Source of the DNA: an uncultured Nitrospirales bacterium
GTDB taxonomy: Bacteria; Nitrospirota; Nitrospiria; Nitrospirales; NS-4
Length of the DNA: 64,000 nt
Assembly: GCA_964472655.1 (NCBI GenBank)
Contig: CAYYLQ010000002.1
Coordinates: 66,295-130,294, forward strand
Direction: 5' to 3'
Shown here one piece after another: positions 15,693 through 40,109 of the stretch (the first letter of the stretch is position 1; each line of letters opens with the position of its first letter). Below the pieces are notes generated by a model. The model did not search any database. It saw only the letters and a program-made list of their open reading frames with translations, and had not been told where the DNA came from. A program made the position numbers and the translations under genes.

Positions 15693-15694
15693 GC

Positions 15695-23360: not shown

Positions 23361-24377
23361 ATGGCCGTGCCTGTCTCCCAGATGTTCACTGTCACTAAGT
23401 ACGTGTTGACCCAGAAGCTCAAAGGGGTCAAACGCTATCCGCTCGTCCTGATGCTGGAACCACTCTTTCGCTGCAATCTTGCCTGTGCGGGCTGCGGCAA
23501 GATCCAGTATCCCGATCATGTCCTGGACAAGCGTCTGACGCCGGAACAGTGCTGGGCGGCCGCCGAGGAATGCGGCGCGCCGATCGTGAGCATTCCGGGC
23601 GGGGAGCCGCTCATCCATCCTGAGATGCCGGCGATCGTGAAAGGACTGGTCGATCGGAAGAAGTACGTCTATCTTTGCACCAACGCCATCTTATTGGAGC
23701 GCAAGCTCGACGAGTACCAGCCGTCGCAATACCTGACATTCAGCATTCACATGGACGGCTTGCAGGCAGAGCACGACCTGGCGGTCTGTCGGGACGGCGT
23801 GTACGACGTCGCCGTCAAAGCGATCAAGGCGGCGCTCACGCGAGGGTTCCGGGTCACCACGAACACGACGCTCTTCGACGACGCCGATCCCGCGCGCGTC
23901 CGGAAGTTCTTCGATGCCATGATGGAGTTGGGCGTCGAAGGCATGATGATTTCTCCGGGGTACAGCTACGAGAAGGCGCCCGACCAAAAGAACTTCCTCA
24001 AGCGGCAGCGGACGCGCGAGCTTTTTTCGCGGATTCTCCACCGGCCCAAGACCGGCTGGCGGTTCAATCAGTCCCCGCTCTTCCTCGACTTCCTCATGGG
24101 CAAGGTGGACTACCAATGCACGCCCTGGGGCAATCCGACCTACAACATCTTCGGCTGGCAGAAGCCCTGTTACCTGCTCCAGGACGGCTATGTGGCGAGT
24201 TTCAGGGAACTCATGGACCAGACCGCCTGGGACAGCTACGGAACCGGACGTAACGAGAAATGCGCCGATTGCATGGTGCATTGCGGATATGAAGCGTCCG
24301 CCGTGGACGATACGTTCGGCTCGCTGCGGGGGTTCGGCCGATCGGTCGTGGCGACGCTGATGCCGACCGCCCGGTAG
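23361..24377 (+). CDS. hpnH: Radical-SAM adenosylhopane synthase HpnH-like
   Basis: CxxxCxxC motif CNLACAGC near the N-terminus. HpnH-like blocks (VSIPGGEPLIHPE, YLCTNAILL, RVTTNTTLF). C-terminal Cys pair (CADCMVHCGYE). Confidence 0.85.
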   Translation: MAVPVSQMFTVTKYVLTQKLKGVKRYPLVLMLEPLFRCNLACAGCGKIQYPDHVLDKRLTPEQCWAAAEECGAPIVSIPGGEPLIHPEMPAIVKGLVDRKKYVYLCTNAILLERKLDEYQPSQYLTFSIHMDGLQAEHDLAVCRDGVYDVAVKAIKAALTRGFRVTTNTTLFDDADPARVRKFFDAMMELGVEGMMISPGYSYEKAPDQKNFLKRQRTRELFSRILHRPKTGWRFNQSPLFLDFLMGKVDYQCTPWGNPTYNIFGWQKPCYLLQDGYVASFRELMDQTAWDSYGTGRNEKCADCMVHCGYEASAVDDTFGSLRGFGRSVVATLMPTAR

Positions 24378-25531: not shown

Positions 25532-25579
25532 GACGCTGTTGCCGTCGGGAGCAGGTTCCCCCGGTGAAGCGTCTTTTTT
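25532..25579 (+). terminator. Rho-independent terminator candidate
   Basis: Outer stem GACGCT (25532-25537) pairs with AGCGTC (25568-25573). The inner pairing is GC-rich and imperfect. The hairpin is followed by TTTTTT (25574-25579). Confidence 0.45.
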
Positions 25580-25620
25580 ATGCGGGGAATCCGGAGATGG
25601 GAAAGGAGTTGGGAGCGATT

Positions 25621-26178
25621 ATGAAAATTACACGCTTGCTTGGATTGTTGATCATCGGCGGTGTGGCATTTCTTGCGGCCGGTTGCGCGGAAGAGCAGGA
25701 GAGTACGGGGCCGCCTCCGCCCGCGCCGCCCGAATACGCCGACAAGCACATGCCGGCCGGGTGGTGGGCCGATGAGAAAATCATCGCTGAGGGCAAGGAG
25801 ATTTTCGAAGGCGTCAAGAATATCGATGTGAATTGCTCCTCGTGCCACGGCAAGGACGGCAAGCCGGTCAAGGCCGGCGCGCGGGACTTCCGCAAGGGCG
25901 AGCGGATGAAGCTCTACTCCGACAGCGTCTGGTTCTGGCGAATTTCCGAAGGGGTGCCGAACACCAAGATGAAAGCCTGGAAGAGCAAGCTCAGCGAAGA
26001 AGACCGCTGGAAAGCCATGGCCTATGAGCGGACCTTCGGATTGAAGGGGCTGGGTTACGACGTGGCCGCCAAGGACTGGGTTCCGGTCGATCAGTTAGGT
26101 AAAGCAAAACCGGCGGCCGGCGACGGCAAGGCTCCGGCGGCGACGCCCGTGAAGGACGACAAGAAAAAAGGGAAGTAA
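25621..26178 (+). CDS. Monoheme c-type cytochrome, lipoprotein
   Basis: ATG 25621. Lipobox LAAGC. Single CxxCH (CSSCH) with a distal Met candidate (PNTKMKAW). Lys-rich tail. Confidence 0.8.
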   Translation: MKITRLLGLLIIGGVAFLAAGCAEEQESTGPPPPAPPEYADKHMPAGWWADEKIIAEGKEIFEGVKNIDVNCSSCHGKDGKPVKAGARDFRKGERMKLYSDSVWFWRISEGVPNTKMKAWKSKLSEEDRWKAMAYERTFGLKGLGYDVAAKDWVPVDQLGKAKPAAGDGKAPAATPVKDDKKKGK

Positions 26179-26210
26179 GCGCGGTCAATCAGTAAGGGAG
26201 CGGGGAAAGC

Positions 26211-27959
26211 ATGAGGACCTGGCAACGCAGCCTTCTTCTTGTACTGGGGCTTTTGTTAGTGGGAACGGCGGCCTATGCGCAACTCCCTGACCCCAAGCCG
26301 CATGAATTCCCCATCGGAGGAAACCGCGCCGCCGTCTGGGTCGTGGCCCAGCTGCACATCCTGTTCGCAGCGTTCATTCTCGGCGCGCCGATCTTCGTGG
26401 TCGTCAGCGAGATCATCGGATGGAAGAACCGCGACGGGCGCTACGAACGGCTGGCGAAGGAAGTCATCAAGGTCACGGTGATCCTCTACAGCATGACTGC
26501 GCTGACGGGCGGTCTCTTCATTTTCGTGCTGCTCGCTACCTATCCGCAGTTGACGGGCTGGCTGATCACCCACTTCTTCGACGTCTTCGCCATCTGGTAC
26601 CCGCTGCTCTTCATTGCGGAGACAATCGTCCTCTACCTCTATTGGTATACCTGGGACGCGTTGCAGGGGCCGCTCAAGCTCCGTCATATCGCGCTTGGGG
26701 TCCTGCTGAACGTGATCGGGCTGGCGACGCTCATTGTGATTGATGGCCCCACTGCGTTCATGAATACCCCGGTGAAATCCGCGGAGGGGCTGGACCTCAG
26801 AACTTTCATCGAAACCACGGCCACGCTGTGGGACAAGATGAACAATTTCAGCTGGTGGCCCCTAAACATCCACCGGACGGTCGGCAACGTGGTCTTCGGC
26901 GGGTTCATCACCGGCCTGATCGCCGCCTACATGTACATGGCCGCCAAAACAGAAGAGGAACGGGCCTTTTACGACTGGTTCGGGTTTGTGGGCAATCTGA
27001 TCGGCGTCGGCGCGCTGTTGTTGCTGCCCTTCGCCGGCTACCTGCTGGCCTACGAGCTCTGCGACTACGATGCCTCCATCTGTCCCTACATGATGGCCGA
27101 TCAGCTGTCCATGTTTTTCGAGATGCAGGGGGCGATGGTCGGGCTGATTTTCCTGGCGAGCAACTATTACATCTGGCTCAGCATGAAGCGGATCGAAGGG
27201 CTGGAACAGATCCGGATGAGGACCACCACACTGGTCCTTATGGCAAGCATCCCGGTCGTCTTCATGTTGATCTGGACCAAGTGGCCGATACCGGACATCA
27301 TGGCGCTCATTGTCCCGGCCTGCTGGGTCGCGGCGTTCCTGATCGCCGGAAAGTTTCTCATGTGGACGGTCCCGGCGCAGACGTTGGTCAGAGTGGCGTT
27401 CTTGATGGTGATCGTCGGCAACGCGATCTGGATGACGCCGCACGCCTTTGTGGCCACGCAGGCCTTGGCGCCCGATGACGGCTCGTTGAGCCTGCCGCAC
27501 GGCGAGCTCAGTCTGGGGTTCGTCACGGTGGATTGGGGCATGCTGGCGCTTATGCCTGCGAAGAACGCGGCGGCCTTCACCCTCGTCTTCGTCACGATCT
27601 GCAACTACATCCTGTACAACCGGGCCCTGAGTCGGGGGCGGATCGTTTGGGGCAAGATCGATTTCGTGTCCCAATTCGTGCTCGTCTTCCTGGCCTTCAG
27701 CGCAATCTGGACGATGGGCCTGATGGGGGCGGTCCGCGAACTGACCCGGAAATACTTCCACGTGTTCAACCTCCAGTACGATTTCACACCGGAGTCCTTC
27801 ACGCCGACCCTTGCATACTCCAGTTGGGTGATCACCGGAGTCACGCTGACGTTCTACATCGTCGTGAGTTTCGCGATCGTCCTGACGCTACGAACCGGGA
27901 AGGATAAGGCTCATGCCGAGGCGTCGAAAGCGGTCCCGGCCGCCGTGGGCGCAAAGTAA
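26211..27959 (+). CDS. Cytochrome bd-like oxidase subunit I homolog (CydA-like), paralog 1
   Basis: CydA-like landmarks: His in VAQLHILFAAF (compare CydA H19), Glu block FIAETIVLYLYWYTW (compare CydA FFLESTF..FGW), His in NIHRTVGNV (compare H186), and WMTPHAF. It also has an N-terminal signal-like segment and extra C-terminal hydrophobic segments. No cydB is adjacent. Confidence 0.8.
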   Translation: MRTWQRSLLLVLGLLLVGTAAYAQLPDPKPHEFPIGGNRAAVWVVAQLHILFAAFILGAPIFVVVSEIIGWKNRDGRYERLAKEVIKVTVILYSMTALTGGLFIFVLLATYPQLTGWLITHFFDVFAIWYPLLFIAETIVLYLYWYTWDALQGPLKLRHIALGVLLNVIGLATLIVIDGPTAFMNTPVKSAEGLDLRTFIETTATLWDKMNNFSWWPLNIHRTVGNVVFGGFITGLIAAYMYMAAKTEEERAFYDWFGFVGNLIGVGALLLLPFAGYLLAYELCDYDASICPYMMADQLSMFFEMQGAMVGLIFLASNYYIWLSMKRIEGLEQIRMRTTTLVLMASIPVVFMLIWTKWPIPDIMALIVPACWVAAFLIAGKFLMWTVPAQTLVRVAFLMVIVGNAIWMTPHAFVATQALAPDDGSLSLPHGELSLGFVTVDWGMLALMPAKNAAAFTLVFVTICNYILYNRALSRGRIVWGKIDFVSQFVLVFLAFSAIWTMGLMGAVRELTRKYFHVFNLQYDFTPESFTPTLAYSSWVITGVTLTFYIVVSFAIVLTLRTGKDKAHAEASKAVPAAVGAK

Positions 27960-27968
27960 GGGGGAGCC

Positions 27969-28796
27969 ATGGCTGGGGAACGAAGCTTCATCGGAATCCT
28001 GATCAAGCGCCTCTTCCTGGGTGGAGTCGCGGCGGTCGTCCTGTTCCTTTTAGGTCGTTTCGTCTTCCACTTCCCCCTCGTGTTTCAGGTCATGTTCGTT
28101 CTCTACGCAGGGCTGGGCACACTCGTTTTTATCCTTCTGGATGCTCCTGCCGTGTCGCCGTTCAGCGGCGTGAAGGCCTTGGTGGCCCTGGTGGCTTTCT
28201 ACGCGGTGATCTCGGGAGCCTTCATCGCCGGCGCCAACTTCCTGCCGCAGTACGATCCCACGGTCGAAAAAGGGAAGATCGACAAGATCGTGAAGCCGAA
28301 GCTGGCGGCGACCGACAAAGGCAAGATGGATGAACTGCTGAAGCGCAGCGTGGAGCTGAACGCCCAGAGCCAGGCCATCATGAAGCGGCTGGAGGCTCTG
28401 GGCGGCGCGGACAAGCTCAAGGCGGTCGGAGGCGACAAAGGCGGCGGCGGGGCTTCGCCCAAAGCGGCGGCCGGCGATCTGGTCGCGATCGGCAAGGAGC
28501 AGTACGACCTGCAGGAGTGCTACAACTGCCACAAGATCGGCGGCAAAGGCTCGGTCAAGAAGCGCGGTCCGATTCTGGACAACATTGGCAGCCTTATGAA
28601 GCCCGAGGAGATGAAGGAAAAATTGCTGAACCCCCGCGCGTGGATGGCCGATGGATTCGAGAAGGAATACAACAAGAAACTCATGCCGGATAAGTACAAG
28701 GAGCTGATGTCGGACCAGGAGATCGACGCCCTGGTGGCGTATCTGGCCACTTTGAAGGACGCGTCGGTCCAGACTCCCAAACCCATCAAGAAGTAA
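27969..28796 (+). CDS. Membrane-anchored monoheme c-type cytochrome
   Basis: Three N-terminal hydrophobic helices, a linker, then CYNCH with a class I cytochrome c-like C-terminus (DQEIDALVAYLATL). Confidence 0.8.
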   Translation: MAGERSFIGILIKRLFLGGVAAVVLFLLGRFVFHFPLVFQVMFVLYAGLGTLVFILLDAPAVSPFSGVKALVALVAFYAVISGAFIAGANFLPQYDPTVEKGKIDKIVKPKLAATDKGKMDELLKRSVELNAQSQAIMKRLEALGGADKLKAVGGDKGGGGASPKAAAGDLVAIGKEQYDLQECYNCHKIGGKGSVKKRGPILDNIGSLMKPEEMKEKLLNPRAWMADGFEKEYNKKLMPDKYKELMSDQEIDALVAYLATLKDASVQTPKPIKK

Positions 28797-28818
28797 ACGA
28801 GCGCCGGGTACGATCTTC

Positions 28819-29754
28819 ATGGCCAGCGTGCAACCAAAGATCAAATCGAAAGTCCGTTGCCTTGACGGCGAGATCGGAGAAATCGTTCACGTCATTGCCG
28901 ACCCCATCTCGCTCGAAGTCAGCCACATCGTCGTCCGCGCGAACGGAACCCAGCGGCAGGTGCCGGCCAGCTCGATCGCCGTGGTGCGGGACGATGCGGT
29001 CGAGCTGCTCTGCAGCGCGTCCCAGGTGGCGGGCTTTCCTGAACACAAGCCGGAAGACTTCCTGACGTCGAAACAGGTCGAGATCCCGCATCTCGAGAAC
29101 CGCATTCACGTCGACCCCGGCGAGTTGCTCGTGCCCTTTCCGGCGCTTGAGAAGAGCTGCGCCCGGCGGAATTTCTTCGCGGGCTTCATCCATGTCATCG
29201 GCGCGCTCATCGCTCTCCCGCTCGTGTGGCCCGTCCTCCGCTTCATCATGAAGCCCATGTACGCCCCGTACGACAACCACTGGATCAAGATCGGGAACGT
29301 GAGCAAGATCAAGACCGACGACATCGGGGTGCAGTTTATCTTCAAGAAGTCCTTCAAAGACTCGGTGTTGGAACGCGAAGAGGACAAGAACCATTGGGTC
29401 ATCAAGGCCACCCCCGAGGTGCTCAAGAAGATTTATCAGCATGGCGACATGGCCTTTTATGACGAGAAGGGCGACGTCGTGTGGGTCAACAAGCAAACGA
29501 TTCCTTACGTCGCATTTGCGGGCAAGTGCCCCCATCTCGGCTGCGGCTACAAGTGGCGCTCGCATAAAACACGCGGGCAGGTGTTTCTCTGTCCGTGCCA
29601 TCTCAGTATTTACGACGCCGCCGGGACCGTGTTGGACGGGCCGGCCCCGCGTCCTCTGGACGTGCTGCCGATCAAAGTCTCTGCAACGGGGGACATCGAA
29701 GTCATCGACATTGAGTACAAAGCGGGGAAGAAAGAGCAGGTTCGCATCCTTTAG
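28819..29754 (+). CDS. Rieske [2Fe-2S] protein with a long N-terminal cytoplasmic extension
   Basis: Rieske boxes CPHLGC (from nt 29527) and CPCH (29590-29601). TM helix FFAGFIHVIGALIALPLVWPV is preceded by ARRNFF, a twin-arginine-like motif. About 115 aa precede that motif. Confidence 0.9.
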   Translation: MASVQPKIKSKVRCLDGEIGEIVHVIADPISLEVSHIVVRANGTQRQVPASSIAVVRDDAVELLCSASQVAGFPEHKPEDFLTSKQVEIPHLENRIHVDPGELLVPFPALEKSCARRNFFAGFIHVIGALIALPLVWPVLRFIMKPMYAPYDNHWIKIGNVSKIKTDDIGVQFIFKKSFKDSVLEREEDKNHWVIKATPEVLKKIYQHGDMAFYDEKGDVVWVNKQTIPYVAFAGKCPHLGCGYKWRSHKTRGQVFLCPCHLSIYDAAGTVLDGPAPRPLDVLPIKVSATGDIEVIDIEYKAGKKEQVRIL

Positions 29755-30840
29755 ATGAATACGCTGTTGCAAAAGGTCTACGATTTCGTCGACGAGCGGA
29801 TAGACCTGAAGACGCTCGAGGCGAAGATGATGAAGGAGCCGATCAAGGGCGGCTCCCGCTGGGCTTACGTCTTCGGCTCGGTCCTGCTGTTCATCTTCAT
29901 CATGCAGGCCGTGACCGGCGTCCTGCTGATGTTCTACTACATCCCCAGCGCCGACCATGCGTACGCCAGCACCCAGTTCATCATTCACGAGGTGGACTAC
30001 GGCTGGTTCATTCTCAGCTATCACTTCTGGGGCTCGTCGGCCATGGTCGTCATGGTCTTTGCCCACATGTCGCAGGTCTTTCTCTGGGGCGCCTACAAGA
30101 CGCCCCGCGAGATGATCTGGCTGATCGGCCTGGGGCTCTTCGGCATCGTGATGGCCTTCGGCTTCACCGGCTATCTCCTGCCGTGGGATCAGCGCGCCTA
30201 CTGGGCCACGACCGTCGGCGTCGAGATCATGGACAAGACACCCGTTGTGGGCGACTTTTTGGCCCGGTTCCTCAAAGGCGGCCCCACGCCCGGGCAGATG
30301 ACCTTGAGCCGGTTTTTCGTCATCCACGTCATGATTCTGCCGGGCGCCTTGATGGGGCTCGCGGGGCTGCATCTCTTCCTCTTCCGGTCGGCTGGGCCCG
30401 CCGGCCCGTTCCGCGGCACCCCCGAGGAGCTGAAGGCCAAGACCGATTTCTTTTTCCCGCGCCAGGTGTGGAAGGACATCGTGGCCATGGCGGCGGTTTT
30501 CCTGAGCATCTGCTCGCTGGCGCTCATCGAGCCGGTGGTCCTGCTGGAAGAGGCAAAGCCCGACCCCGGCGATTACCATCCGGAGCCCGAGTGGTACTTC
30601 CTGTTCCTGTTCCAGATGCTCCGGTGGAAGGCCTTTTCGGGCGAGTTCGGCCAGTTCGTGGCAGCGACGGCGATTCCCGCCGCATTCATGCTGTTGCTGG
30701 CCGCACTGCCGTTCATCGACCGGAGCCCGGAGCGCAATATCTTTAAACGCCCGATCGCACTGTTGTCCTGGACCGTAGTCATGATCGGGATTCTGGTCCT
30801 GACCGTGTCCGCGATCCTCAACCGCGAGTTCCTCGACTGA
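29755..30840 (+). CDS. Cytochrome b (fused b6 plus subunit IV-like)
   Basis: Heme ligand pairs H-x13-H (HFWGSSAMVVMVFAH) and H-x14-H (HVMILPGALMGLAGLH). Qo-site PEWY motif (PEPEWYFLF). The ATG directly abuts the Rieske stop. Confidence 0.9.
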   Translation: MNTLLQKVYDFVDERIDLKTLEAKMMKEPIKGGSRWAYVFGSVLLFIFIMQAVTGVLLMFYYIPSADHAYASTQFIIHEVDYGWFILSYHFWGSSAMVVMVFAHMSQVFLWGAYKTPREMIWLIGLGLFGIVMAFGFTGYLLPWDQRAYWATTVGVEIMDKTPVVGDFLARFLKGGPTPGQMTLSRFFVIHVMILPGALMGLAGLHLFLFRSAGPAGPFRGTPEELKAKTDFFFPRQVWKDIVAMAAVFLSICSLALIEPVVLLEEAKPDPGDYHPEPEWYFLFLFQMLRWKAFSGEFGQFVAATAIPAAFMLLLAALPFIDRSPERNIFKRPIALLSWTVVMIGILVLTVSAILNREFLD

Positions 30841-30852
30841 CGGAGGCCGGGC

Positions 30853-31701
30853 ATGTCCCATCCCGCGACCGCCATCTCCTCCATCAAGCTGGCCTGGGCC
30901 CTGTCCTGGTCGGCCTTCTGGACGGGGTTCCCGTTCAAGCTGATCGTCGCCCTGCTGCTGCTCGCGGCGCAGATCCACCCTTGGGAGAGCGCGGGGCTCA
31001 TTGCGTTGCTCGCGCTGTCGGCACCGATCGATATCTGGGCGTTGGGCCTGACGGCCCGGACCTTCTTCCTCGAACGGCTGGGGATGGAGATTCGCGGGCC
31101 GGCGGGGATCGCGCTCTGGTGGCAGGGCGCCGTCCTTGGCGCCGTCGTGCTGGGAGCCGCCTATTTCGCGGTTGGTGCCGTCGCTGCTGTCTGCCAGAAA
31201 GCCGCGGCGGCCACATTCGTCGCGGTGAAGAAAGTCCTTCCCGTTCCCATCGCTGAGCAGATCACCATCGAATTGCTGATGTGGGCCGTGCCGGCCACGA
31301 TCGTGCTCATTGTATGTCTCCTGATCTGGCTGCAGCTCTTCGGGTGGCGGATCAAGCGTTTCCTCGTCGCTTCCGGCCAGACCAGCCCGGCCGGCTTGCA
31401 GGAGCGCGTGCGGGAATGGGACGGCTGGCGCGTGCCGGCCGATTCGATGCTGATGCTGGTGTCCTTTACCGCAGTGGCCGTGCTCTTGACCGTCGCGTTC
31501 TGGGTGCTGCTGCCGGTGACGACGCCGCACCGGCACCCGGACTATCCCCCGCCGCAGACGGACACGGCCAAGAAGACGCCCAAGCCGGAGGAGCTGTTGA
31601 AAAAAACAGATACCACCCTCGCCAAGGCCGAAGCGGTCCTGGAGTTGCTGGAAAAGGAAAAAGCCAAAGAGAAGAAAAAGCCCGCGGCCAAGGGGAAATA
31701 G
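30853..31701 (+). CDS. Polytopic membrane protein of unknown function with Lys/Glu-rich C-terminal tail
   Basis: GGAGG (30842-30846) precedes ATG 30853. Several hydrophobic helices. Tail KKTPKPEELLKKTDTTLAKAEAVLELLEKEKAKEKKKPAAKGK. No family recognised. Confidence 0.6.
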   Translation: MSHPATAISSIKLAWALSWSAFWTGFPFKLIVALLLLAAQIHPWESAGLIALLALSAPIDIWALGLTARTFFLERLGMEIRGPAGIALWWQGAVLGAVVLGAAYFAVGAVAAVCQKAAAATFVAVKKVLPVPIAEQITIELLMWAVPATIVLIVCLLIWLQLFGWRIKRFLVASGQTSPAGLQERVREWDGWRVPADSMLMLVSFTAVAVLLTVAFWVLLPVTTPHRHPDYPPPQTDTAKKTPKPEELLKKTDTTLAKAEAVLELLEKEKAKEKKKPAAKGK

Positions 31702-31715
31702 AAGGAGAGAGCGCT

Positions 31716-33548
31716 ATGGAACACATACGGAACCATAAAAATGTGTATGCCTATGCGGCGCTTTTCCTGGTGCTGGCGTTTGTGGTCGCGATGCCGGTGG
31801 GCCTGGCTTGGGCCGAGGAAGCTTCGGCGGGGGCGGCGACGGAGTATCGCGACATCCCTGGCATGGGCAGCCGGAACCTGATCTGGATCATTGCGCAGCA
31901 GCACCTGCTCCTGGCGGGGTTCGTACTGGGCGTGCCGATCTTCGCGTGGGTATGCGAGATCGTCGGCGTCAGGACCGGCGACCAGCGATACGACAAACTG
32001 GCCAAGGAATTTACCAAGCTGCTCACGTCCTCCTACGCCACGACCGCCCTCTTTGGCGGTATTCTCCTGTTCCTGCTGATCGGGCTCTATCCCAAGCTGA
32101 TGTCCTACCTCACGGACGTCTTCTTCCCCTCGTTTCTCGCGTACAGTGTCCTCTTTCTGCTGGAGACGGCGACTCTGTACCTCTACTGGTACGGGTGGGA
32201 TTCGATGCAGGGGAAGCAGAAAGGTTTGCATCTGTTCCTGGGCTTCCTGCTCAACGTCTTCGCATTCTTCATCATGATCATCCCGAACTCCTGGGCGACC
32301 TTCCAGGCCAGCCCGGTCGTGATCGCGGAAGGCAGCATGTGGTCCAAGGCATGGGCGGCGACGTGGAATCCGACCTGGTGGCCGGTGAACGTCCACCGCC
32401 TGATCGCCAACGTCGTGCTGGGCGGCTACATCTGCGGCGCGTACGCGGGGCTCAAGTACTTGATGGCGCAGAACGCGGAAGAGCGCGTGCATTACGACTG
32501 GATGGGGTACGTCGGGAACTTCATCGGCGTGTTCGGCCTGCTGCCGCTGCCCTTCGCCGGCTACTGGCTGATGCGGGAGATCTACCAGTACAACCAGCAG
32601 ATGGGCATCACCCTCATGGGCGGGTTCCTCTCCTGGCTGTTCATCCTGCAGGCCATGCTGATCGGGATTTTATTCGTCGGCTCGAACTATTACTTCTGGC
32701 TGGGGATCATGCATCGGATTCCCGGGTCCGAAGCCAAGTACCGGCGGCCGATCCTGACGATGCTGGTCATCCTGCTCGTGTGTCTGGGGGTCTGGATGAC
32801 CCCGCATTCCCTGGTCGCGAGCCTGGAAGAGGCGCGGAAGATGGGCGGCACCCACCATCCCCTGCTGGGCGTCTTCGGCGTCATGTCCGCGAAGATGACC
32901 GTGGCGAATCTCATGATCCTGGTAACCTTTATGAGCTTCATCATGTACTGGCGGGCCGGCAAGGTGGAGACCGCCGGGTGGGCGAAGGCGGCCAAGGCCG
33001 GCCAGGGCGTGATCCTTGGAATTGCCGTGATCGTCGTCGTCGTGCTGGGTGTGTGGGGCTATTTCGTGCCGGCCATCACGCGGATCAACTATTTTTCCAC
33101 GACCCAGGTGCTGGTCGTGCTCTTCGTTCTGCTGACCATTACGCCCTTGACGGGGCTCCTGATGAAGAGCGCCAAGACGACCACCGAGATGGTGTGGGGC
33201 GTCATGCCGCCGCGATCGGCGTATGCCCTTGTGCTCAACGCGGTCATGGTCATCCTGCTCATGACCCTCATGGGCTATGCGCGGTCGTCGTCGCGGGTCC
33301 ACTGGCACGTGTACGGAGTGATGCAGGACACCTCGCAATATGCCTATTCGCCTGCGCTCGGCTACGCCGCCGCCTTCATGGCCCTGAACACGTTCATGTT
33401 CTGCATGCTGGTCGCGTTCATTTTCTGGGTCGCCTCCCTGGGTGGCGAGAAGAAAGGCGGCGCTCCGGACAAGGCGGCCGCGAAAGCAAAGGGCGCCGCG
33501 TCGCCGGCCGTCGGGACGGCTCCCGCAGCGGCGACCGGCCGTCGCTAG
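31716..33548 (+). CDS. Cytochrome bd-like oxidase subunit I homolog (CydA-like), paralog 2
   Basis: ORF 31281..33548 trimmed to ATG 31716, which follows AGGAGAGA. It shares the CydA-like landmarks of paralog 1 (AQQHLLL, FLLETATLYLYWYGW, NVHRLIANV, WMTPHS). It also has extra His motifs: THHP (32853-32858) and VHWHV (33300-33308). About 13 hydrophobic segments follow the signal-like N-terminus, counted by eye. Confidence 0.8.
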   Translation: MEHIRNHKNVYAYAALFLVLAFVVAMPVGLAWAEEASAGAATEYRDIPGMGSRNLIWIIAQQHLLLAGFVLGVPIFAWVCEIVGVRTGDQRYDKLAKEFTKLLTSSYATTALFGGILLFLLIGLYPKLMSYLTDVFFPSFLAYSVLFLLETATLYLYWYGWDSMQGKQKGLHLFLGFLLNVFAFFIMIIPNSWATFQASPVVIAEGSMWSKAWAATWNPTWWPVNVHRLIANVVLGGYICGAYAGLKYLMAQNAEERVHYDWMGYVGNFIGVFGLLPLPFAGYWLMREIYQYNQQMGITLMGGFLSWLFILQAMLIGILFVGSNYYFWLGIMHRIPGSEAKYRRPILTMLVILLVCLGVWMTPHSLVASLEEARKMGGTHHPLLGVFGVMSAKMTVANLMILVTFMSFIMYWRAGKVETAGWAKAAKAGQGVILGIAVIVVVVLGVWGYFVPAITRINYFSTTQVLVVLFVLLTITPLTGLLMKSAKTTTEMVWGVMPPRSAYALVLNAVMVILLMTLMGYARSSSRVHWHVYGVMQDTSQYAYSPALGYAAAFMALNTFMFCMLVAFIFWVASLGGEKKGGAPDKAAAKAKGAASPAVGTAPAAATGRR

Positions 33549-33560
33549 GGGTTGGTGTCC

Positions 33561-34148
33561 ATGACTGAAGTCCAACTGTTGCAAGCGATTGGGATGGGCG
33601 TGGTCGGTCTGGGGGGGGCGATCCTCCTCTTTGTGCAAGCCCGCTTCGTCCGCGTGGTCGCCTTCGTGCTGATCGTGCTAGGGGGCTTTGCGTTGGTCGC
33701 CCTGGGGGTTCCCCAAATGGCCTCGTTGCCGCCCGCCGTGGAAAAATTCGACGTGGCGTCCATCAAGGAGAAGAAGGACCTGGCGGCGATCGGCCAGAAG
33801 ATCTTCTTCGGCAAGGGCCAGTGCGCGCTGTGTCATACGATCGGCAGCAGCGAGGGCCGGTGTCCTGACCTCAAGGGCGTCGGGTCCAAGCTGACGCGCG
33901 AATTCATTTACGAAAGCCTGACCCAACCCCAGGCGTACGTCTATAAGGACTACGAGCACGTCGGCCAGGCCAAGTTCTTCCCCGCCAAGATGCCTTACAT
34001 CAACAAGAAACCGATCGGCTTGAGCAACAACGAGATCCTCGCGGTCATCGCCTTCCTGCAGAATATGTCGGGTGAGCCGGTGACCATCGAATTGTCCGAG
34101 ATTGAGGCGCCCAGTTCCGTAAGCGCGGAGAGGAGGAAAGGCCTATGA
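33561..34148 (+). CDS. Membrane-anchored monoheme c-type cytochrome
   Basis: Two N-terminal hydrophobic helices, then CALCH. The C-terminus resembles a class I cytochrome c (ILAVIAFLQNM). TTG 33552 and GTG 33555 are alternative starts. Confidence 0.75.
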   Translation: MTEVQLLQAIGMGVVGLGGAILLFVQARFVRVVAFVLIVLGGFALVALGVPQMASLPPAVEKFDVASIKEKKDLAAIGQKIFFGKGQCALCHTIGSSEGRCPDLKGVGSKLTREFIYESLTQPQAYVYKDYEHVGQAKFFPAKMPYINKKPIGLSNNEILAVIAFLQNMSGEPVTIELSEIEAPSSVSAERRKGL

Positions 34149-34867
34149 GAGGGTCCTCACTGGCGATCAAGGGGGCCATTCTGCTGGCGGCGGTGTTCGC
34201 GGTGCTGAAGTTCATCCTGCCGCTCTTTACCGCGCCCTTGCCCATGAGTCTCATCTGGCTGTATTTGTTTTTGGCCACCGTCGGCATCGTCGTGTACGGC
34301 ACGCTCAGTGGCGAGTCCACGGAGCAATTGATGGGTCCCATCTTCCGGTTTCTAAGCGGGGAAGGGTTGAACGGGGTGGCCCGATATGCCCGTCTCACGG
34401 TCCTGGTGCTGTTCCCGCTCCTCGTGGGCTGGGAAACTTACAGCGGCCTCGTGCCCAGCAGCCAGCCGCCCGCCGAGAACCGGACCATCCACCCGGCGCC
34501 TCCCGGAGAGTTCGTGGGGCTGTCCAATCCCCTGCCCAACACGCCGGAGAATGTGATGATGGGAAAGGGGCTCTATTCCGCCTTCTGTTCGCCCTGCCAC
34601 GGCGCGAAGTTCAACGGCAACGGTCCGGCCTCCGACGGGTTCAACCCGCCGCCGGCCAACTTCTCCGATCCCGGCACCATCGCCATGCTCCAGGAGTCCT
34701 ACCTGTTCTGGCGCATCAAAAAGGGCGGGGTGGGGCTGTCGGTCGAGGGCCATCCGTGGAAATCGGCCATGCCGCGCTGGGAAGTGGAACTGCCCGACGA
34801 CTGGATATGGAAGATCATCATGGCGGAATATGCCGGAGCCGGGCAGAAGCCCAGGACGTGGGAGTAA
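34145..34867 (+). CDS. Membrane-anchored monoheme c-type cytochrome
   Basis: ATGA overlap with the upstream gene. Three hydrophobic helices, then CSPCH with distal Met candidates (KSAMPRW). Confidence 0.8.
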   Translation: MRGSSLAIKGAILLAAVFAVLKFILPLFTAPLPMSLIWLYLFLATVGIVVYGTLSGESTEQLMGPIFRFLSGEGLNGVARYARLTVLVLFPLLVGWETYSGLVPSSQPPAENRTIHPAPPGEFVGLSNPLPNTPENVMMGKGLYSAFCSPCHGAKFNGNGPASDGFNPPPANFSDPGTIAMLQESYLFWRIKKGGVGLSVEGHPWKSAMPRWEVELPDDWIWKIIMAEYAGAGQKPRTWE

Positions 34868-34870
34868 GCG

Positions 34871-35821
34871 ATGAGAACGGTTCCATCACGATACGGGATG
34901 GTGGCTCTCTTGGCCGTTGCGGCGGGCCTGCTGTGGGTCGCGTCGGCGCTCTCGCAAGAGACCGTCGTCGTTCGCGCGAAGCTGATCCAAGGCGAGGTGC
35001 CGACGGATCCGTCCGCGTCGATCTGGGGCACGATCCCGGCGACCGAGTTCCCGATGTCACCCCAGGTCCATTGGCAGAAACGCATCGGGTCGGTGACGGT
35101 CAAGTCCATCAAGGTGCGGGCCGTCCATAACAATAAGCAGATCTCGTTCCTCGTCGAATACGCGGATCCGACCCAGGACCCGGCCGACGCCGCGGCGCTG
35201 GAGTTCATGGTGGGCGACAAGAAGGCCCACTTTGCCCACGGACAGCCCATGGGGCAGGTGGAAGGCGGGCCGGTCAACATCTGGTACTGGCGAAACGACG
35301 CGCCGGCGGCTCTGGACATGAGCGCGCAGGGCTTCGGGACGCTGAAGAAGCAGGCTCAGCAGGACGTTCAGGCGAAAGGCGTCTGGAAAGACGAGAAGAC
35401 CAAGATCAAGTTCAAGGAACGCAAGCTGAATCCCCGCAAGGGCGACAAAGGCGAGGTGCTCAAGGATCCGAAGACGGGCGATCCGCTCTTTGATGAAGAG
35501 ACGAAGGTGGTCGAACAGGACGTAAGCGGCGTGTGGCGCATTGTGTTTACCCGCGCGCTGACCACCACCGACAAGGAGGACGTCCAGATTCAGACAGGGA
35601 CGTTCCCAAACGTCGCCTTCGCGGTGTGGGACGGCAAGAAGCTGGAGAGTGGCGATCTGAAGGAGTCGGGCTCGCAAAAGGCTATCACGTCCTGGTGGTA
35701 CATCAACGCGGAGCCGCCGCCGGATTATTCGATTTATTTGTACGGCCTCATGGCGGTCGTGCTGGCCGCGGGGGTGGAGTTCGTCATCATCCGGAAGGTG
35801 AAGAAGGGGCAGCCGGCGTGA
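34871..35821 (+). CDS. EB_dh-type (ethylbenzene dehydrogenase gamma-like) heme-b binding protein with C-terminal membrane anchor, NxrC-like
   Basis: Signal peptide (GMVALLAVAAGLLWVASALS). The soluble domain resembles, by eye, the gamma subunits of type II DMSO-reductase-family enzymes (WGTIPATEFPMSPQVHW, NIWYWRND, VAFAVWDG). C-terminal TM IYLYGLMAVVLAAGVEFVII followed by a basic tail. Confidence 0.6.
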   Translation: MRTVPSRYGMVALLAVAAGLLWVASALSQETVVVRAKLIQGEVPTDPSASIWGTIPATEFPMSPQVHWQKRIGSVTVKSIKVRAVHNNKQISFLVEYADPTQDPADAAALEFMVGDKKAHFAHGQPMGQVEGGPVNIWYWRNDAPAALDMSAQGFGTLKKQAQQDVQAKGVWKDEKTKIKFKERKLNPRKGDKGEVLKDPKTGDPLFDEETKVVEQDVSGVWRIVFTRALTTTDKEDVQIQTGTFPNVAFAVWDGKKLESGDLKESGSQKAITSWWYINAEPPPDYSIYLYGLMAVVLAAGVEFVIIRKVKKGQPA

Positions 35822-36615
35822 AGGGTCAGCGCATTGCAGGAGGGGCCGCCGTCGTGACGGTGGCGGCGTTGGTCGGACTCGCCGGCTGCGGGCTGTTTCA
35901 GGACGAGCATGTGGCGAAGGGCGCGGACCTGTACGCCTATTATTGCTCCCATTGTCACGGGGAGAAAGGGAAGCCGGGCCAGGGCTTTAACTGGAAGCTC
36001 ATGCCAGATCCCAAACCCAAGGACCTGTCCAACAGGGATGAGATGAGCACCCTCAAGGACCAGGAGATCTTCGAGACCATCTCCCGCGACATGAAGGACA
36101 CGACCCCCCAGGTCGGCGACAAGATCGGCGACGACGAGTTCGCCGTTCCGACGATGCCGACGTTCAAGTACACGCTGTCGGAGGAGGAACTCTGGTCGCT
36201 GGTGGCCTTCGTGCGGACGCTCCACGGGACAAAGATAGAGAAGAAGGACTTCGCCGCGCTGAAGAAGGAGCGGCCAAAGGGTTCGCCGATCGCTAAGCCG
36301 ACGGTCACGGCGACGCCGGCCGAAGAGTCCAAGCTGGCGGCGCGCGGCAAGCAGCTCTATTTGAATAAGTACGGCTGCAATGCCTGCCACAAGGTGGGAG
36401 ACACCGGCGGCGAGGTCGGCCCGCCTTTGGACCGGGCGGGGTTCCGCCTGAACGGCCACTGGGTCTATCGGTGGATCAAATACCCGCAGATTATGAAGCC
36501 CCACACCAAGATGCCGAATCTCGGCGTGAGCGACGACGATGCCAAGGCCCTCATGTTCTACCTGAAGACCTTGAACGCGCCGCCGCCGGACAAGCCGCTG
36601 CCGGCTTCGTCCTAA
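35818..36615 (+). CDS. Diheme c-type cytochrome, lipoprotein
   Basis: GTG 35818 overlaps the upstream stop (GTGA) and follows AAGAAGGGG. Lipobox LAGC. Two CxxCH motifs (CSHCH, CNACH). The ORF track extends upstream to 35533 inside the previous gene. Confidence 0.8.
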   Translation: MKGQRIAGGAAVVTVAALVGLAGCGLFQDEHVAKGADLYAYYCSHCHGEKGKPGQGFNWKLMPDPKPKDLSNRDEMSTLKDQEIFETISRDMKDTTPQVGDKIGDDEFAVPTMPTFKYTLSEEELWSLVAFVRTLHGTKIEKKDFAALKKERPKGSPIAKPTVTATPAEESKLAARGKQLYLNKYGCNACHKVGDTGGEVGPPLDRAGFRLNGHWVYRWIKYPQIMKPHTKMPNLGVSDDDAKALMFYLKTLNAPPPDKPLPASS

Positions 36616-36622
36616 GCCGCGC

Positions 36623-37501
36623 CTACCTGAGCAAGACCCCGCTCCAGATGCCCGCGAGGATCAGCGCGCCGATCCCGACGTGCTGCTTGAACAAGACGGA
36701 GGCTTGAGCCTGCGACACCCCGCGTCTAAGCTGTCGTGCCTGGGCGACGAAGAGTCCCACAGCCAGCGCCAGCGAGAGGTAAAACGGAAGCGCGAGGCGT
36801 ATCGCCGCGCCGACGAATGCCAGGATTGCCGCCATGGCGAGCAGCGCGCCGCCCACGGCGATCCAGCACCACTCTCCAAAAAAGATGGCCGAGGAACGCA
36901 CGCCGACCCGCCGGTCGTCCTCGATGTCCTGCAGAGCATAGATCGTATCGTACCCGACGGCCCAGCAGACGGTCGCTGCGAAGAGGCCGAACGCCGGCCA
37001 GCCGATCTCGTTCCGCACCGCAGACCAGGCCATGACAGCGCCCCAGCCGAACGCGATGCCGAGGATGGCCTGCGGGAGCGGCATGACTCGCTTCGCGAGC
37101 GGGTAGAGGACGGCCAGGAGCAGGGCGACGGGCGCCAGCGCAATGGTGAATTGGTTGAGTAGGGAGACCAGGCCGGCGGCGGCGGCAATCAGCAACGCGA
37201 AGATTCCCAATGCGGCGTGGGGATGCAGACGTCCCGATGCGAGCGGGCGCTCGCAGGTCCGCTGAACTTGGCGGTCCAGGTCGCGATCCCACCAGTCGTT
37301 GATGACGACGCCGGCGCTCCGCATGACGAAGACGCCCGTGATGAAAATTGCGACGAGCGTGAGCGGCGGACGCCCCTCGCCGGCGAGCGTCAGCGCCCAC
37401 AACGTCGGCAACAGCAGCAAGAACGATCCCGTTTGGTTGCGGAGTCGGATGAGGTCGGCCAGAGTGGACCAGGAGAGCGGCGAACCTCCGAAAACGGCCA
37501 T
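36623..37501 (-). CDS. ubiA: 4-hydroxybenzoate polyprenyltransferase-like UbiA-family prenyltransferase
   Basis: First Asp-rich motif NDWWDRDLDRQVQRTCERPLASG matches UbiA (NDxxDRxxDxxxxRTxxRPLxSG). Second motif YALQDIEDD. Polytopic protein. Confidence 0.8.
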   Translation of the reverse strand: MAVFGGSPLSWSTLADLIRLRNQTGSFLLLLPTLWALTLAGEGRPPLTLVAIFITGVFVMRSAGVVINDWWDRDLDRQVQRTCERPLASGRLHPHAALGIFALLIAAAAGLVSLLNQFTIALAPVALLLAVLYPLAKRVMPLPQAILGIAFGWGAVMAWSAVRNEIGWPAFGLFAATVCWAVGYDTIYALQDIEDDRRVGVRSSAIFFGEWCWIAVGGALLAMAAILAFVGAAIRLALPFYLSLALAVGLFVAQARQLRRGVSQAQASVLFKQHVGIGALILAGIWSGVLLR

Positions 37502-37645: not shown

Positions 37646-39514
37646 ATGTCCTTCCGCGTTCCGGCCCTCCGGCCTCTGATAAGCCTCGTCGTCCTGCTGG
37701 CGGCGCTGGCGGGTTTCGGGTGCGGACAGAAGCTCGTTTTCCCCCGGTTGGAATTCAAATCCGACGAGCCCCAAATACCCAGCATCCCACTGACCGTCCG
37801 TCTCGACATTCCCGACGCGTTCAAACAGACCCAGCTGTTTTACAAGGATTCGTGCGGCGTGTCCCAGGGCATTCCCTTGGGTGAGCGTCTCGCCGAGCAA
37901 GTGAAGGCCGATGCGGCCGGCGTCTTTGAAAAGACCTTTGTGGGCGGCCCGAAGGATCCCGCCGACGCCGTCCTGAGCGCCGCGATCGAGACCAGCGAAC
38001 TTACCCTGAACATTCCGCGCCGTGAGCCCAACGAGTACAAGATGACTGTCTTGGTGCGCTTGCGGATCACGATGACCGATTCCGAGGGCAGGTCGCTGTT
38101 CAACGGCGCGGTCAAGGGCGAAGGGAAATGGAACGTGACCACCGACGGGATTGAATGCACGGTGCGAGGGCTGATGCTGCCTGTGACGGAGGCGCTGGAA
38201 AAGCTTTCGGATCGGACCGTCGAGGAACTGGCCCAATCGGTCAAGGTCCGCGACTGGGCCATGCGGCTGCAGACTCGCAAGGAAATGACGGCCGGCGGCG
38301 TCCAGGCGCCGCCGGCCGGGGCCGGCGATCCTCCCACGCTGAGCTTCCGTGCGTCGCTCGAAGACGAGAACCGCAACCAGATCCTCAACGCGGGTGAGAA
38401 GGTCGTCGTCCGGGTGGAAGTGGCCAACAGCGGTCCGGGCGTGGCGCGAGGAGTGACGGTCGTCCTGTCCGGAACCCCGGATCTGGTGAAGGAATTCACC
38501 AACCCCACGCTGCTCGGTGATCTCCAGCCGGGCGAGAAGAAACAGGCAGTCATTACATCGCTCCTGCCGGCGTCCCTCTCTGATCAACAGGCGGAGCTGC
38601 AGGTGCAGGTGACCGAGGCCGGCGGATTCGGGCCGCCGACTCAGAAACGGTTCGCCGCGTCGGTGAAGTCGAAGGAAGGGTCAGTCGAGACGGTCGAAGT
38701 CCCGTCCAGCGACGTGGACCAGATCCCCCCGCGGGCGTCGGGGTTCGATCGGCGCACCTCCTATGCCGTCGTGGTGGGGATCGGAGGGTACCGCGAGGAA
38801 GGTGTCCCCAAGCTGAAGTACGCCAAGCGCGATGCCGAAGTGGTCGCCAAGCACCTGATGGCGCTGGCGGGGTATGCCCCCGAGAACGTGCGGGTCTTGA
38901 CGAACGAGCGGGCGCTGCTGGTGGATCTCCAGGAAACTTTTGAAGACTGGCTTCCCCGAATGGCCGCGTCGTCTGGCGTCGTGTTCGTCTATCTGGTCGG
39001 CAACGCCGTCCTCAATCCGGAAAACGGCACGATCGTCCTGATGCCCTATGAGGGCCGTCAGGACCAGGCCCGCCGGGGCTACTCTCTGAAGCGGCTGCAG
39101 GAGGTACTGGCGCGCTTGCCCTCCAAACTGAACCTGGTCTTTGCCGACCTCTCGTTTCCGGCCGATAAGACGGGGGCCAGCCCGCGGCCCATTCTGTGGA
39201 ACGCCGGCGGGCCTGATGGGAAAAACCGTACCATCATCGTCGGATCGTCCTCAACGAACGGTCCCAGCCTGTCATTCGATGCGGGGCAGCACGGACTGTT
39301 CACGTATCACTTCCTCAAGGCCGTTCGCGGGCAGGCCGATACCGACAATAACGGCTGGGTGGACGTGGGCGAGATCGTCGCCTATCTCCGGGAGCAGGTG
39401 GCCAAGGGGGCTGTGGCGCTCAAACGGGAACAGGTGCCGGTGGTCAGTCCCGATGTTGCGCCGGACGGCCCGATCGGCACGTATCCGGTCAGCAAAGCCA
39501 AACGGCGGGGTTGA
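37646..39514 (+). CDS. Lipoprotein with a C-terminal caspase-fold (peptidase C14-like) domain lacking the canonical His/Cys dyad
   Basis: Lipobox LAGFGC. The middle region resembles a CARDB-like beta-sandwich (GEKVVVRVEVANSGPGVARGVTVVLSG). C14-like blocks are present (YAVVVGIGGYR...LKYAKRDAEVVAKHL, HGLFTYHFLKAVRGQADTDNNGWVDVGEIVAYL). GHG is replaced by VGNAV (N at 39002-39004). DxC is replaced by ADLS (S at 39152-39154). Confidence 0.7.
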   Translation: MSFRVPALRPLISLVVLLAALAGFGCGQKLVFPRLEFKSDEPQIPSIPLTVRLDIPDAFKQTQLFYKDSCGVSQGIPLGERLAEQVKADAAGVFEKTFVGGPKDPADAVLSAAIETSELTLNIPRREPNEYKMTVLVRLRITMTDSEGRSLFNGAVKGEGKWNVTTDGIECTVRGLMLPVTEALEKLSDRTVEELAQSVKVRDWAMRLQTRKEMTAGGVQAPPAGAGDPPTLSFRASLEDENRNQILNAGEKVVVRVEVANSGPGVARGVTVVLSGTPDLVKEFTNPTLLGDLQPGEKKQAVITSLLPASLSDQQAELQVQVTEAGGFGPPTQKRFAASVKSKEGSVETVEVPSSDVDQIPPRASGFDRRTSYAVVVGIGGYREEGVPKLKYAKRDAEVVAKHLMALAGYAPENVRVLTNERALLVDLQETFEDWLPRMAASSGVVFVYLVGNAVLNPENGTIVLMPYEGRQDQARRGYSLKRLQEVLARLPSKLNLVFADLSFPADKTGASPRPILWNAGGPDGKNRTIIVGSSSTNGPSLSFDAGQHGLFTYHFLKAVRGQADTDNNGWVDVGEIVAYLREQVAKGAVALKREQVPVVSPDVAPDGPIGTYPVSKAKRRG

Positions 39515-39624: not shown

Positions 39625-39635
39625 GTGAGGTTTTC

Positions 39636-40109
39636 ATGCCCATCAACCAAGCGCTCGCCACGATTCCATTTTTCGCTGACTTGACCGACCATGAGCGGGA
39701 ACTGCTGGGCCCGCTGTGCGGCATCCGGGAGGGGAGGGAAGGAGACCATCTCATTATCGAAGGCGCCCCGGTCGAGCACATCTTCTGCCTGCTGTCCGGC
39801 AAGGTGGGGGTCTACAAGAAAGACAAGGAAGGGAAGAAGGTCTTGATCGCGTCGCTCGGCAAGGGCTTTATCTTCGGCGAGATGTCATTTTTGGACGGCG
39901 GACCCGCCTCTGCGACGGTCAAGGCGGGGTTGCCCTTTCAAGTGTTGACCATCAATCAAGGCGCCTTGCATCGGTTGCTCGAAAACCAGCCGAAGCTCGG
40001 GCACAAAATACTCAAGGCCATGGCCCACCTGACCAGCCTTCGCTTGAGACAGGCTGATGATATGCTGGCCGGATTTCCCGGCACCTCCCGCGACCTTACG
40101 GTCGCCTGA
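39636..40109 (+). CDS. Stand-alone cyclic-nucleotide-binding domain protein
   Basis: CAP_ED-type sequence (FFADLTDHERELL, GDHLIIEGAPVEHIFCLLSGKV, GFIFGEMSFLDGGPASATVKA). No DNA-binding or other output domain. ORF 39141..40109 trimmed to ATG 39636, which follows GAGG. Confidence 0.8.
   Translation: MPINQALATIPFFADLTDHERELLGPLCGIREGREGDHLIIEGAPVEHIFCLLSGKVGVYKKDKEGKKVLIASLGKGFIFGEMSFLDGGPASATVKAGLPFQVLTINQGALHRLLENQPKLGHKILKAMAHLTSLRLRQADDMLAGFPGTSRDLTVA

Follow-up and report, generated by a model that had tools for sequence, protein, structure and literature searches.

An alt_NxrC_1-type EB_dh heme-b protein in the complex III and bd-like oxidase operon of an uncultured Nitrospirales bacterium: a probable electron-entry subunit of the oxidase module

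The 64-kb stretch of DNA analysed here (the window: positions 66,295 to 130,294 of contig CAYYLQ010000002.1, assembly GCA_964472655.1, from an uncultured Nitrospirales bacterium) was searched by means of its list of open reading frames (ORFs), Pfam, tblastn and motif scans. On its plus strand, at 34871..35821, lies a gene for a protein of 316 aa comprising a Sec signal peptide, an EB_dh heme-b domain and a C-terminal transmembrane (TM) anchor; it stands within a densely packed respiratory cluster and, judged by sequence, is the orthologue of alt_NxrC_1 of Nitrospira moscoviensis. The interpretation favoured in this work is that its product is probably the periplasmic electron-entry heme-b subunit of an oxidase module of the OR-N2 type. 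The gene, its context and the electron-entry hypothesis are already known from published work on N. moscoviensis and on the TO_1 module, and NCBI contains an identical (100%) protein sequence. What the window adds is a further orthologue, the conservation of the heme ligands and a module composition kept from NS-4-like Nitrospirales to Binatia.

The gene starts with ATG and is preceded, 6 nt upstream, by a Shine-Dalgarno-like GGGAG motif. The N-terminus of the product reads MRTVPSRYGMVALLAVAAGLLWVASALS|QE, with a positive n-region, a hydrophobic segment at residues 8-29 (Kyte-Doolittle 2.2) and an A-x-S|QE site; the Sec-type signal peptide thereby delimited occupies residues 1-28 (34871..34954, plus strand), with predicted cleavage at ALS|QE. 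In the orthologues this site is aligned as A-x-A|QE. Neither a twin-arginine (RR) motif at the N-terminus nor a heme c motif (CxxCH) anywhere in the protein was found. The C-terminal anchor comprises residues 287-308 (35729..35794, plus strand; KD19 maximum 2.13) and is followed by RKVKKG; a structure model places a helix at 287-311, in agreement with the anchor, which is kept in all orthologues. Since this basic tail follows the TM helix, the positive-inside rule predicts that the EB_dh domain lies on the periplasmic side, and the protein as a whole is predicted to be Sec-exported and held by a single C-terminal anchor.

The domain assignment is clear. The Pfam EB_dh profile (PF09459) matches residues 49-261 with E=2.4e-22 and 80.6 bits, against a gathering score of 33.3, and the match spans profile positions 1-232 of 236. 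The preliminary description of this locus had named a signal peptide, an EB_dh-like domain and a C-terminal helix, and had proposed the profile search as a check; all three elements were verified. Among PDB chains, the only significant sequence matches are EbdC, the gamma subunit of ethylbenzene dehydrogenase (2ivf_C), which is the second-best profile match, and the NxrC of Kuenenia (7b04_C). An AlphaFold2 model built from 25 homologues (mean pLDDT 67.5, pTM 0.66) retrieved the same two proteins at the top of a Foldseek search against the PDB, with E=1.7e-10 for 2ivf_C and E=1.1e-9 for 7b04_C, both with probability 1.0. The next structural neighbours are CBM9 carbohydrate-binding modules (E about 1e-4 to 1e-5), and the cytochrome domain of cellobiose dehydrogenase appears far down the list with a non-significant E-value, a pattern which fits the wider DOMON-like fold.

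The heme of Kuenenia NxrC is ligated by Met155 and Lys305 'as in EBDH' (Chicano et al., PMC8387239). The predicted axial ligands of the window protein are Met127 (codon 35249..35251, plus strand), which lies in a conserved MG motif and aligns to Met108 of EbdC, and Lys270 (codon 35678..35680, plus strand), which lies in the motif GSQKAITSWW and aligns to Lys305 of Kuenenia NxrC. Of 78 orthologous proteins, which were extracted from 80 genomic loci, 77 have Met127, a residue invariant in the alignment A1, and all have Lys270; the family-wide motif ERxGQKAVSxW marks the latter as the equivalent ligand residue. Thus, the check on Met/Lys ligands that had been proposed for this gene also gave a positive answer, and by analogy with these two proteins we infer that Met127 and Lys270 of the window protein ligate a single b-type heme of high potential. 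The profile-to-PDB alignments ended short of the ligand lysine. A different lysine, Lys264, which phmmer paired with Lys201 of EbdC, was considered and rejected: it is replaced by Val in about 60% of the orthologues, whereas Lys270 is invariant and aligned to the Kuenenia ligand.

These data also bear on the idea that the protein carries a non-redox, DOMON/CBM9-like binding domain devoid of heme, acting for example as a carbohydrate or envelope anchor. A weak, sub-threshold DOMON match and the CBM9 modules standing next in the structural ranking speak in its favour; nevertheless, with both axial ligands near-invariant, two heme-b gamma subunits as the best matches and an exclusively respiratory context, it can be regarded as scarcely credible.

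A peculiarity of the window protein is a Lys/Glu-rich insertion of 45 aa (residues 174-218; 35390..35524, plus strand) at the tip of a conserved beta-hairpin, GVW...VWR. It is not found in the orthologues of Nitrospira sensu stricto (272-280 aa), which have a 3-residue turn at that point, and is confined to an NS-4-like clade, where it occurs in 14 of the 25 sequences of alignment A1 and in the loci L001-L019 and L077. The insertion was modelled as a long two-stranded beta-arm (E166-188/E207-229) with pLDDT 80-88, and one may speculate that it acts as a docking element. Insertion columns that hmmalign shared with other EB_dh subfamilies turned out not to be homologous, the insertions of those subfamilies preceding the motif EDLNAxGFGTL. 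Together with a natural fusion to the downstream diheme cytochrome c, described below, the beta-arm is what is new here, and the novelty is modest.

Ten genes, all on the plus strand, are tightly packed here, with the EB_dh gene in ninth place; counting the cytochrome c gene at 25564 as well, it comes tenth among eleven. The first part of the cluster, where successive genes are separated by intergenic gaps of 0-32 nt (25564..31701), was assigned through Pfam and contains a cytochrome c (25564..26178), bd-like oxidase 1 (OR-N1, 26211..27959), a second cytochrome c (27969..28796), a Rieske protein (28819..29754), a cytochrome b (29755..30840) and a 6-TM protein without Pfam family (30853..31701; 282 aa, with a Lys/Glu-rich tail). 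Then follow bd-like oxidase 2 (31716..33548), a CydA homologue of the OR-N2/NIDE0901-like type (Cyt_bd_oxida_I E=4.8e-20; at least 11 TM-like segments), which is the putative oxygen-reducing subunit of the module, and two membrane-anchored monoheme cytochromes c. The first of these, cytochrome c B (33552..34148; Pfam Cytochrom_C), has N-terminal TM segments and CxxCH at residue 91; the second, cytochrome c C (34145..34867; Cytochrome_CBB3), overlaps the former by ATGA and has CxxCH at residue 148. Downstream of the EB_dh gene, the cluster continues with a diheme cytochrome c (35818..36615) with two Cytochrom_C stretches and CxxCH at residues 43 and 187; its N-terminus, ...ALVGLAGC, contains a lipobox-like LAGC, which points to a protein that is probably a lipoprotein. 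All cytochromes c of the cluster have an N-terminal membrane anchor or a lipobox. Oxidases of this kind have been classed as OR-N1 and OR-N2 (Murali et al.).

The junctions of the EB_dh gene are equally tight: 3 nt separate it from the upstream cytochrome c gene (end 34867), and its TGA stop (35819-35821) is overlapped by the GTG start of the diheme cytochrome c at 35818 (GTGA). Both spacings, which had been pointed out at the outset and agree with the coordinates, are repeated, with offsets of -726 and +947, in those orthologous loci that are closest. The long antisense ORFs lying over the operon (e.g. 28786-31536, minus strand) were dismissed as shadow ORFs of GC-rich coding DNA. A promoter and terminator scan of 24-38 kb gave a number of sites not above that of shuffled sequence, and no operon boundaries were drawn from it.

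The same gene order exists in Nitrospira, comammox and NS-4 loci. Counting among the 80 loci, in each case those with enough sequence present, synteny was observed for bd-like oxidase 1 in 49/51, for the Rieske protein in 57/59, for cytochrome b in 58/60, for bd-like oxidase 2 in 70/71, for cytochrome c B in 73/74 and for cytochrome c C in 78/78. The diheme cytochrome c is well conserved in the NS-4-like clade and was undetected by tblastn, at a query coverage of at least 50%, in most Nitrospira loci. The 6-TM protein, whose gene separates those of cytochrome b and bd-like oxidase 2, keeps its place in most loci, with 28-85% identity, its counterpart in the loci L089 and L090 being merely a 91-aa ORF.

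As regards the EB_dh protein itself, the closest loci (74-89% identity) come from metagenome-assembled genomes (MAGs) of uncultured 'Nitrospirales/Nitrospirae bacterium', including the soil MAGs NS_1 to NS_12, NS_4 among them; the orthologues of Nitrospira sensu stricto and comammox are 49-55% identical over the full length. In a neighbour-joining tree, which is crude and has no bootstrap, the alt_NxrC_1-type proteins form one clade apart from soluble NxrC. By these similarities the window would belong in or near the family NS-4. This family was defined in a comparative study of 2025, which reports nxrAB in it (PMC12342949), and NITMOv2_0740, the alt_NxrC_1 of N. moscoviensis, was not found in the supplements of that study. 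ORFs of 418-441 aa among the extracted orthologues were not accepted as fusions; most likely they arise from wrongly placed start codons, since upstream frames in GC-rich DNA stay open. One MAG, CAYLLY01, bears two copies of the module (L014 and L006), whose EB_dh proteins are 82% and 84% identical to that of the window; one copy lies in a complex III cluster and the other (L014) is without complex III, which could reflect either paralogy or a mixed bin.

A molybdoenzyme partner was searched for at the locus. The only coding-strand ORF above 900 aa in the window is an SMC protein. Pfam assigned the other large ORFs to squalene-hopene cyclase, DXS, ClpB-like, adenylate cyclase, caspase-domain, HflX-like and porin proteins and, further, to aminotransferase, IspG, KAS, fumarase, CoaBC and M28 peptidase. 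Moreover, tblastn of the window with queries taken from related loci (the molybdopterin alpha, the Fe-S beta and NarJ/TorD-like proteins) gave E=0.03 at best, the ferredoxin-type motif CxxCxxCxxxCP was not found in any frame, and the EB_dh gene is the single one of its kind present. The preliminary description had stated that the window contains no alpha or beta genes, and this holds by all three approaches. Homologues of the alpha subunit, the beta subunit or the chaperone were likewise detected in 0 of the 80 orthologous loci (1.24 Mb). The protein has the profile, fold and Met/Lys ligands of an EB_dh/heme-b gamma subunit, without being encoded together with alpha and beta genes; its topology, its position in the CIII_1/bd-like_2 cluster and its sequence orthology are all those of alt_NxrC_1.

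The comparison was extended beyond the Nitrospirales. A profile search of 1.84 billion representatives gave 1,228 relatives, and among the best 150 of these, which were inspected, there are many anchored single-domain forms as well as many that have two CxxCH motifs, a C-terminal TM helix being present in some of the latter and absent from others. Four genes, for the OR-N2 bd-like oxidase, two cytochromes c and the anchored EB_dh protein, are contiguous and co-inherited across different genomic settings. The full cluster is found in the loci L089 and L090 ('Nitrospiria bacterium'). At L091 the four-gene module stands alone, adjoining hydrogenase maturation (hyp) genes, and its products are 70/54/55/40% identical to the window proteins. 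At L086 an nxr-like cluster precedes genes for a bd-like oxidase, two cytochromes c and a diheme-EB_dh protein, and in the Verrucomicrobia (L084) Rieske and cytochrome b genes are followed by a diheme-EB_dh protein and then by alpha and beta genes. Furthermore, a Binatia locus (L081, 1-7130; MAG GCA_046757725.1) presents in a row a molybdopterin alpha subunit, a Fer4_11 beta subunit, a bd-like oxidase of 781 aa, a cytochrome c and an anchored EB_dh protein. From its gene content, a molybdoenzyme may here be hard-wired to an oxidase of the bd-like kind; nitrite oxidation is not known from this phylum. The same locus encodes, 4 kb downstream, another bd-like oxidase accompanied by cytochromes c.

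One relative, P0127 (509 aa), is a natural fusion: its residues 16-273 correspond to the EB_dh protein of the window and residues 274-506 to the diheme cytochrome c (40% identity, E=4e-55 for the diheme part), with a second hydrophobic segment between the two parts. As a Rosetta-stone link, this fusion supports a direct association of the two window proteins, which is predicted on that basis. It would equally suit a role inside the complex III/OR-N oxidase assembly, as a structural subunit or redox relay that receives electrons from the bc complex or from cytochromes c and makes no contact with a periplasmic dehydrogenase. Such a role would also accord with the packing of the gene into a single cluster that encodes, besides Rieske and cytochrome b, five cytochromes c with six heme c sites, and with the lack of a dehydrogenase next to the stand-alone module of L091. 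However, modules without complex III (L091, L014 and L081) indicate that the bc complex does not accompany the protein throughout, in its other known occurrences the EB_dh fold serves as the exit by which electrons leave molybdoenzymes, and the adjacency to alpha and beta genes in Binatia favours a dehydrogenase partner; a purely internal relay is, in consequence, rather improbable.

Two published systems come closest to the one described here. The alt_NxrC_1 of N. moscoviensis (NITMOv2_0740) shares with the window protein the signal peptide, the EB_dh domain, the single C-terminal TM helix and the lack of a heme c motif, as well as the position after bd-like_2 and two cytochromes c in the CIII_1 cluster and the proposed role. 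The orthologues in Nitrospira share about 52% identity with the window protein and are fully syntenic, whereas the latter is about 40 aa longer, owing to the beta-arm insertion, and belongs to a deeper, uncultured NS-4-like clade. During nitrite oxidation, alt_NxrC_1 lies in a strongly transcribed region together with CIII_1, bd-like_1, bd-like_2 and several cytochromes c (Mundinger 2019, PMC6606698), and in the same work it was proposed to connect soluble nitrite oxidoreductase (NXR) and complex IV directly, the two cytochromes c that lie between serving as shuttles. The second system is TO_1 of Ca. Manganitrophus, described as a bd-like oxidase, two cytochromes c and a 'CISM periplasmic cytochrome b' (Yu & Leadbetter, 10.1101/2021.11.15.468770), a composition which, likened from that description alone, is the same as that of the module. 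Among the oxidase complexes of Manganitrophus it was reported to have the highest expression; it is described as widespread in Nitrospirota and has been proposed to receive periplasmic electrons (10.1101/2021.11.15.468770). Its host differs in having no NXR, the donor being thought to be a Mn(II)-oxidising system (10.1101/2021.11.15.468770).

The alt_NxrC_2 type (with bd-like_3; also in anammox bacteria, Nitrospina and L086) has in common with the window protein the EB_dh domain, often a C-terminal TM helix, and the adjoining bd-like oxidase and two cytochromes c. It differs in its N-terminal diheme cytochrome c domain and in a proposed interaction with the quinone pool, and its lysine ligand is often replaced: in an alignment of 114 representatives, many diheme-fused EB_dh proteins have Met, His, Arg or Cys at that position (e.g. 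GLRMSLSSWYY, GSRHTMTSWYW), which suggests another axial ligation, or loss of the b-heme, in this subfamily. A role in reverse electron flow has been assigned to this paralogous alt_NxrC_2/bd-like_3 cluster (PMC6606698). As NXR is reversible and the window gene is co-located with complex III, the EB_dh protein could in principle work in reverse and deliver electrons toward NXR. This direction is very unlikely, considering that an oxidase homologue is always part of the module, that the published assignment of NIDE0901-like proteins is oxygen reduction and that the region is strongly expressed in aerobic nitrite oxidation (PMC6606698).

Under the favoured interpretation, the protein would be exported by the Sec system, and its one C-terminal helix would hold it at the outer face of the cytoplasmic membrane; its heme b would take electrons from a periplasmic donor encoded elsewhere, here presumably the nitrite oxidoreductase NxrAB(C), and would hand them via the neighbouring cytochromes c to the bd-like oxidase, the module being in this organism built into a complex III operon. 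The preliminary description had read the protein as a membrane docking and electron-entry point that links a periplasmic oxidoreductase to the oxidase, and this agrees both with the comparative genomics (the joint travel of the module and the alpha/beta adjacency in Binatia) and with the published alt_NxrC_1 hypothesis. Several facts weigh against it. In Nitrospirales the gene was found within 10 kb of nxrAB in none of the 80 loci; the alt_nxrC_1 transcript of N. moscoviensis is about 25-fold below those of nxrAB and of the soluble nxrC_2 (PMC6606698); and NXR does not appear to be required for the function of the module, because this has been reported in the NXR-free Manganitrophus, so that another donor than NXR is conceivable. 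In addition, the structure model is of moderate quality and poor near both ligand loops. The present data establish the domain, the fold, the ligand residues, the topology signals, the synteny and the co-inheritance of the module; heme binding, complex formation, contact with NXR, the direction of electron flow and the donor's identity are predictions from sequence.

The comparison with alpha/beta-associated gamma subunits prompts one to ask if the protein is itself a true alternative gamma, binding NxrB in place of the soluble NxrC, in such a way that a sub-population of NxrAB would form a membrane-bound holoenzyme wired to the oxidase. The motifs PVNIWYW, (D/M)xxAxGFGTL (LDMSAQGFGTL here), FAVWDG and GxQKAxxSWW are common to it and to those gammas; in the Binatia operon (alpha, beta, oxidase, cytochrome c, EB_dh) the anchored EB_dh protein is the only gamma candidate, and the NXR of Nitrospira has been reported to be membrane-associated (PMC6606698). 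With soluble NxrC (Kuenenia kustd1704, PDB 7B04 chain C; the Nitrospira nxrC_2 type) the window protein shares, besides the EB_dh fold, Met/Lys heme-b ligation and Sec export, a periplasmic or anammoxosomal location. Nevertheless, soluble NxrC is without a membrane anchor, is encoded beside nxrAB or in an NxrC-TorD-pentaheme cluster (L082, L085), has a large insertion of its own elsewhere, before the EDLNAxGFGTL motif, and is about 29% identical to the window protein. EbdC (PDB 2IVF chain C), in turn the best structural match, with Met108/Lys201 corresponding to M127/K270, is unlike the window protein in being soluble, co-encoded with EbdAB, part of an anaerobic hydrocarbon hydroxylase and devoid of an oxidase partner. 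This low identity to NxrC, the separate clade in the tree and the presence of the module in the absence of NXR argue against a true gamma; moreover, the highly expressed soluble nxrC_2 matches the levels of nxrAB (PMC6606698), and because the alt_nxrC_1 transcript lies so far below these, alt_NxrC_1 is not a stoichiometric or core subunit of NXR. Overall, an alternative gamma seems unlikely, if less so than the internal relay.

A related view, which we consider possible and advance tentatively, separates the protein from NXR altogether: rather than an NXR subunit, it would provide electron entry, in a donor-agnostic way, to an autonomous heme-b/cytochrome-c/OR-N terminal oxidase of four subunits, having been recruited from the gammas of molybdoenzymes. 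If this were true, the donor would be nitrite in Nitrospirales, Mn(II) in Manganitrophus and a molybdoenzyme in Binatia, and the 45-aa beta-arm of the NS-4-like clade would be a lineage-specific docking element for its own donor. The anchored heme-b protein is the leading candidate for the missing link on the path that electrons take from periplasmic NXR to oxygen in Nitrospira, the nitrite oxidisers of widest distribution. The beta-arm and the diheme fusion could aid the design of interaction experiments.

Some further observations concern the neighbourhood of the operon. A UbiA-family prenyltransferase gene (36623-37501, minus strand) converges on it in nearly all loci; because the UbiA-family gene stands together with UbiD and chorismate lyase genes in L089 (11655-15463) and L090, a quinone-biosynthesis unit can be regarded as a constant companion of the respiratory genes. 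Upstream, genes of hopanoid and isoprenoid synthesis lie dispersed (5767-7932, 7939-8706, 13794-16870 and 23361-24377), the set including squalene-hopene cyclase, PNP_UDP_1 (HpnG-like), DXS, IspG and radical-SAM/DUF3463 (HpnH-like) proteins. Further along the window, a CHASE2-adenylate/guanylate cyclase-TPR protein is encoded at 46277-48322 (minus strand) and a stand-alone cNMP-binding protein at about 39630-40109. Finally, an exported caspase-domain (Peptidase_C14) protein of 622 aa (37646-39514, plus strand) is kept just downstream of the operon in most loci.

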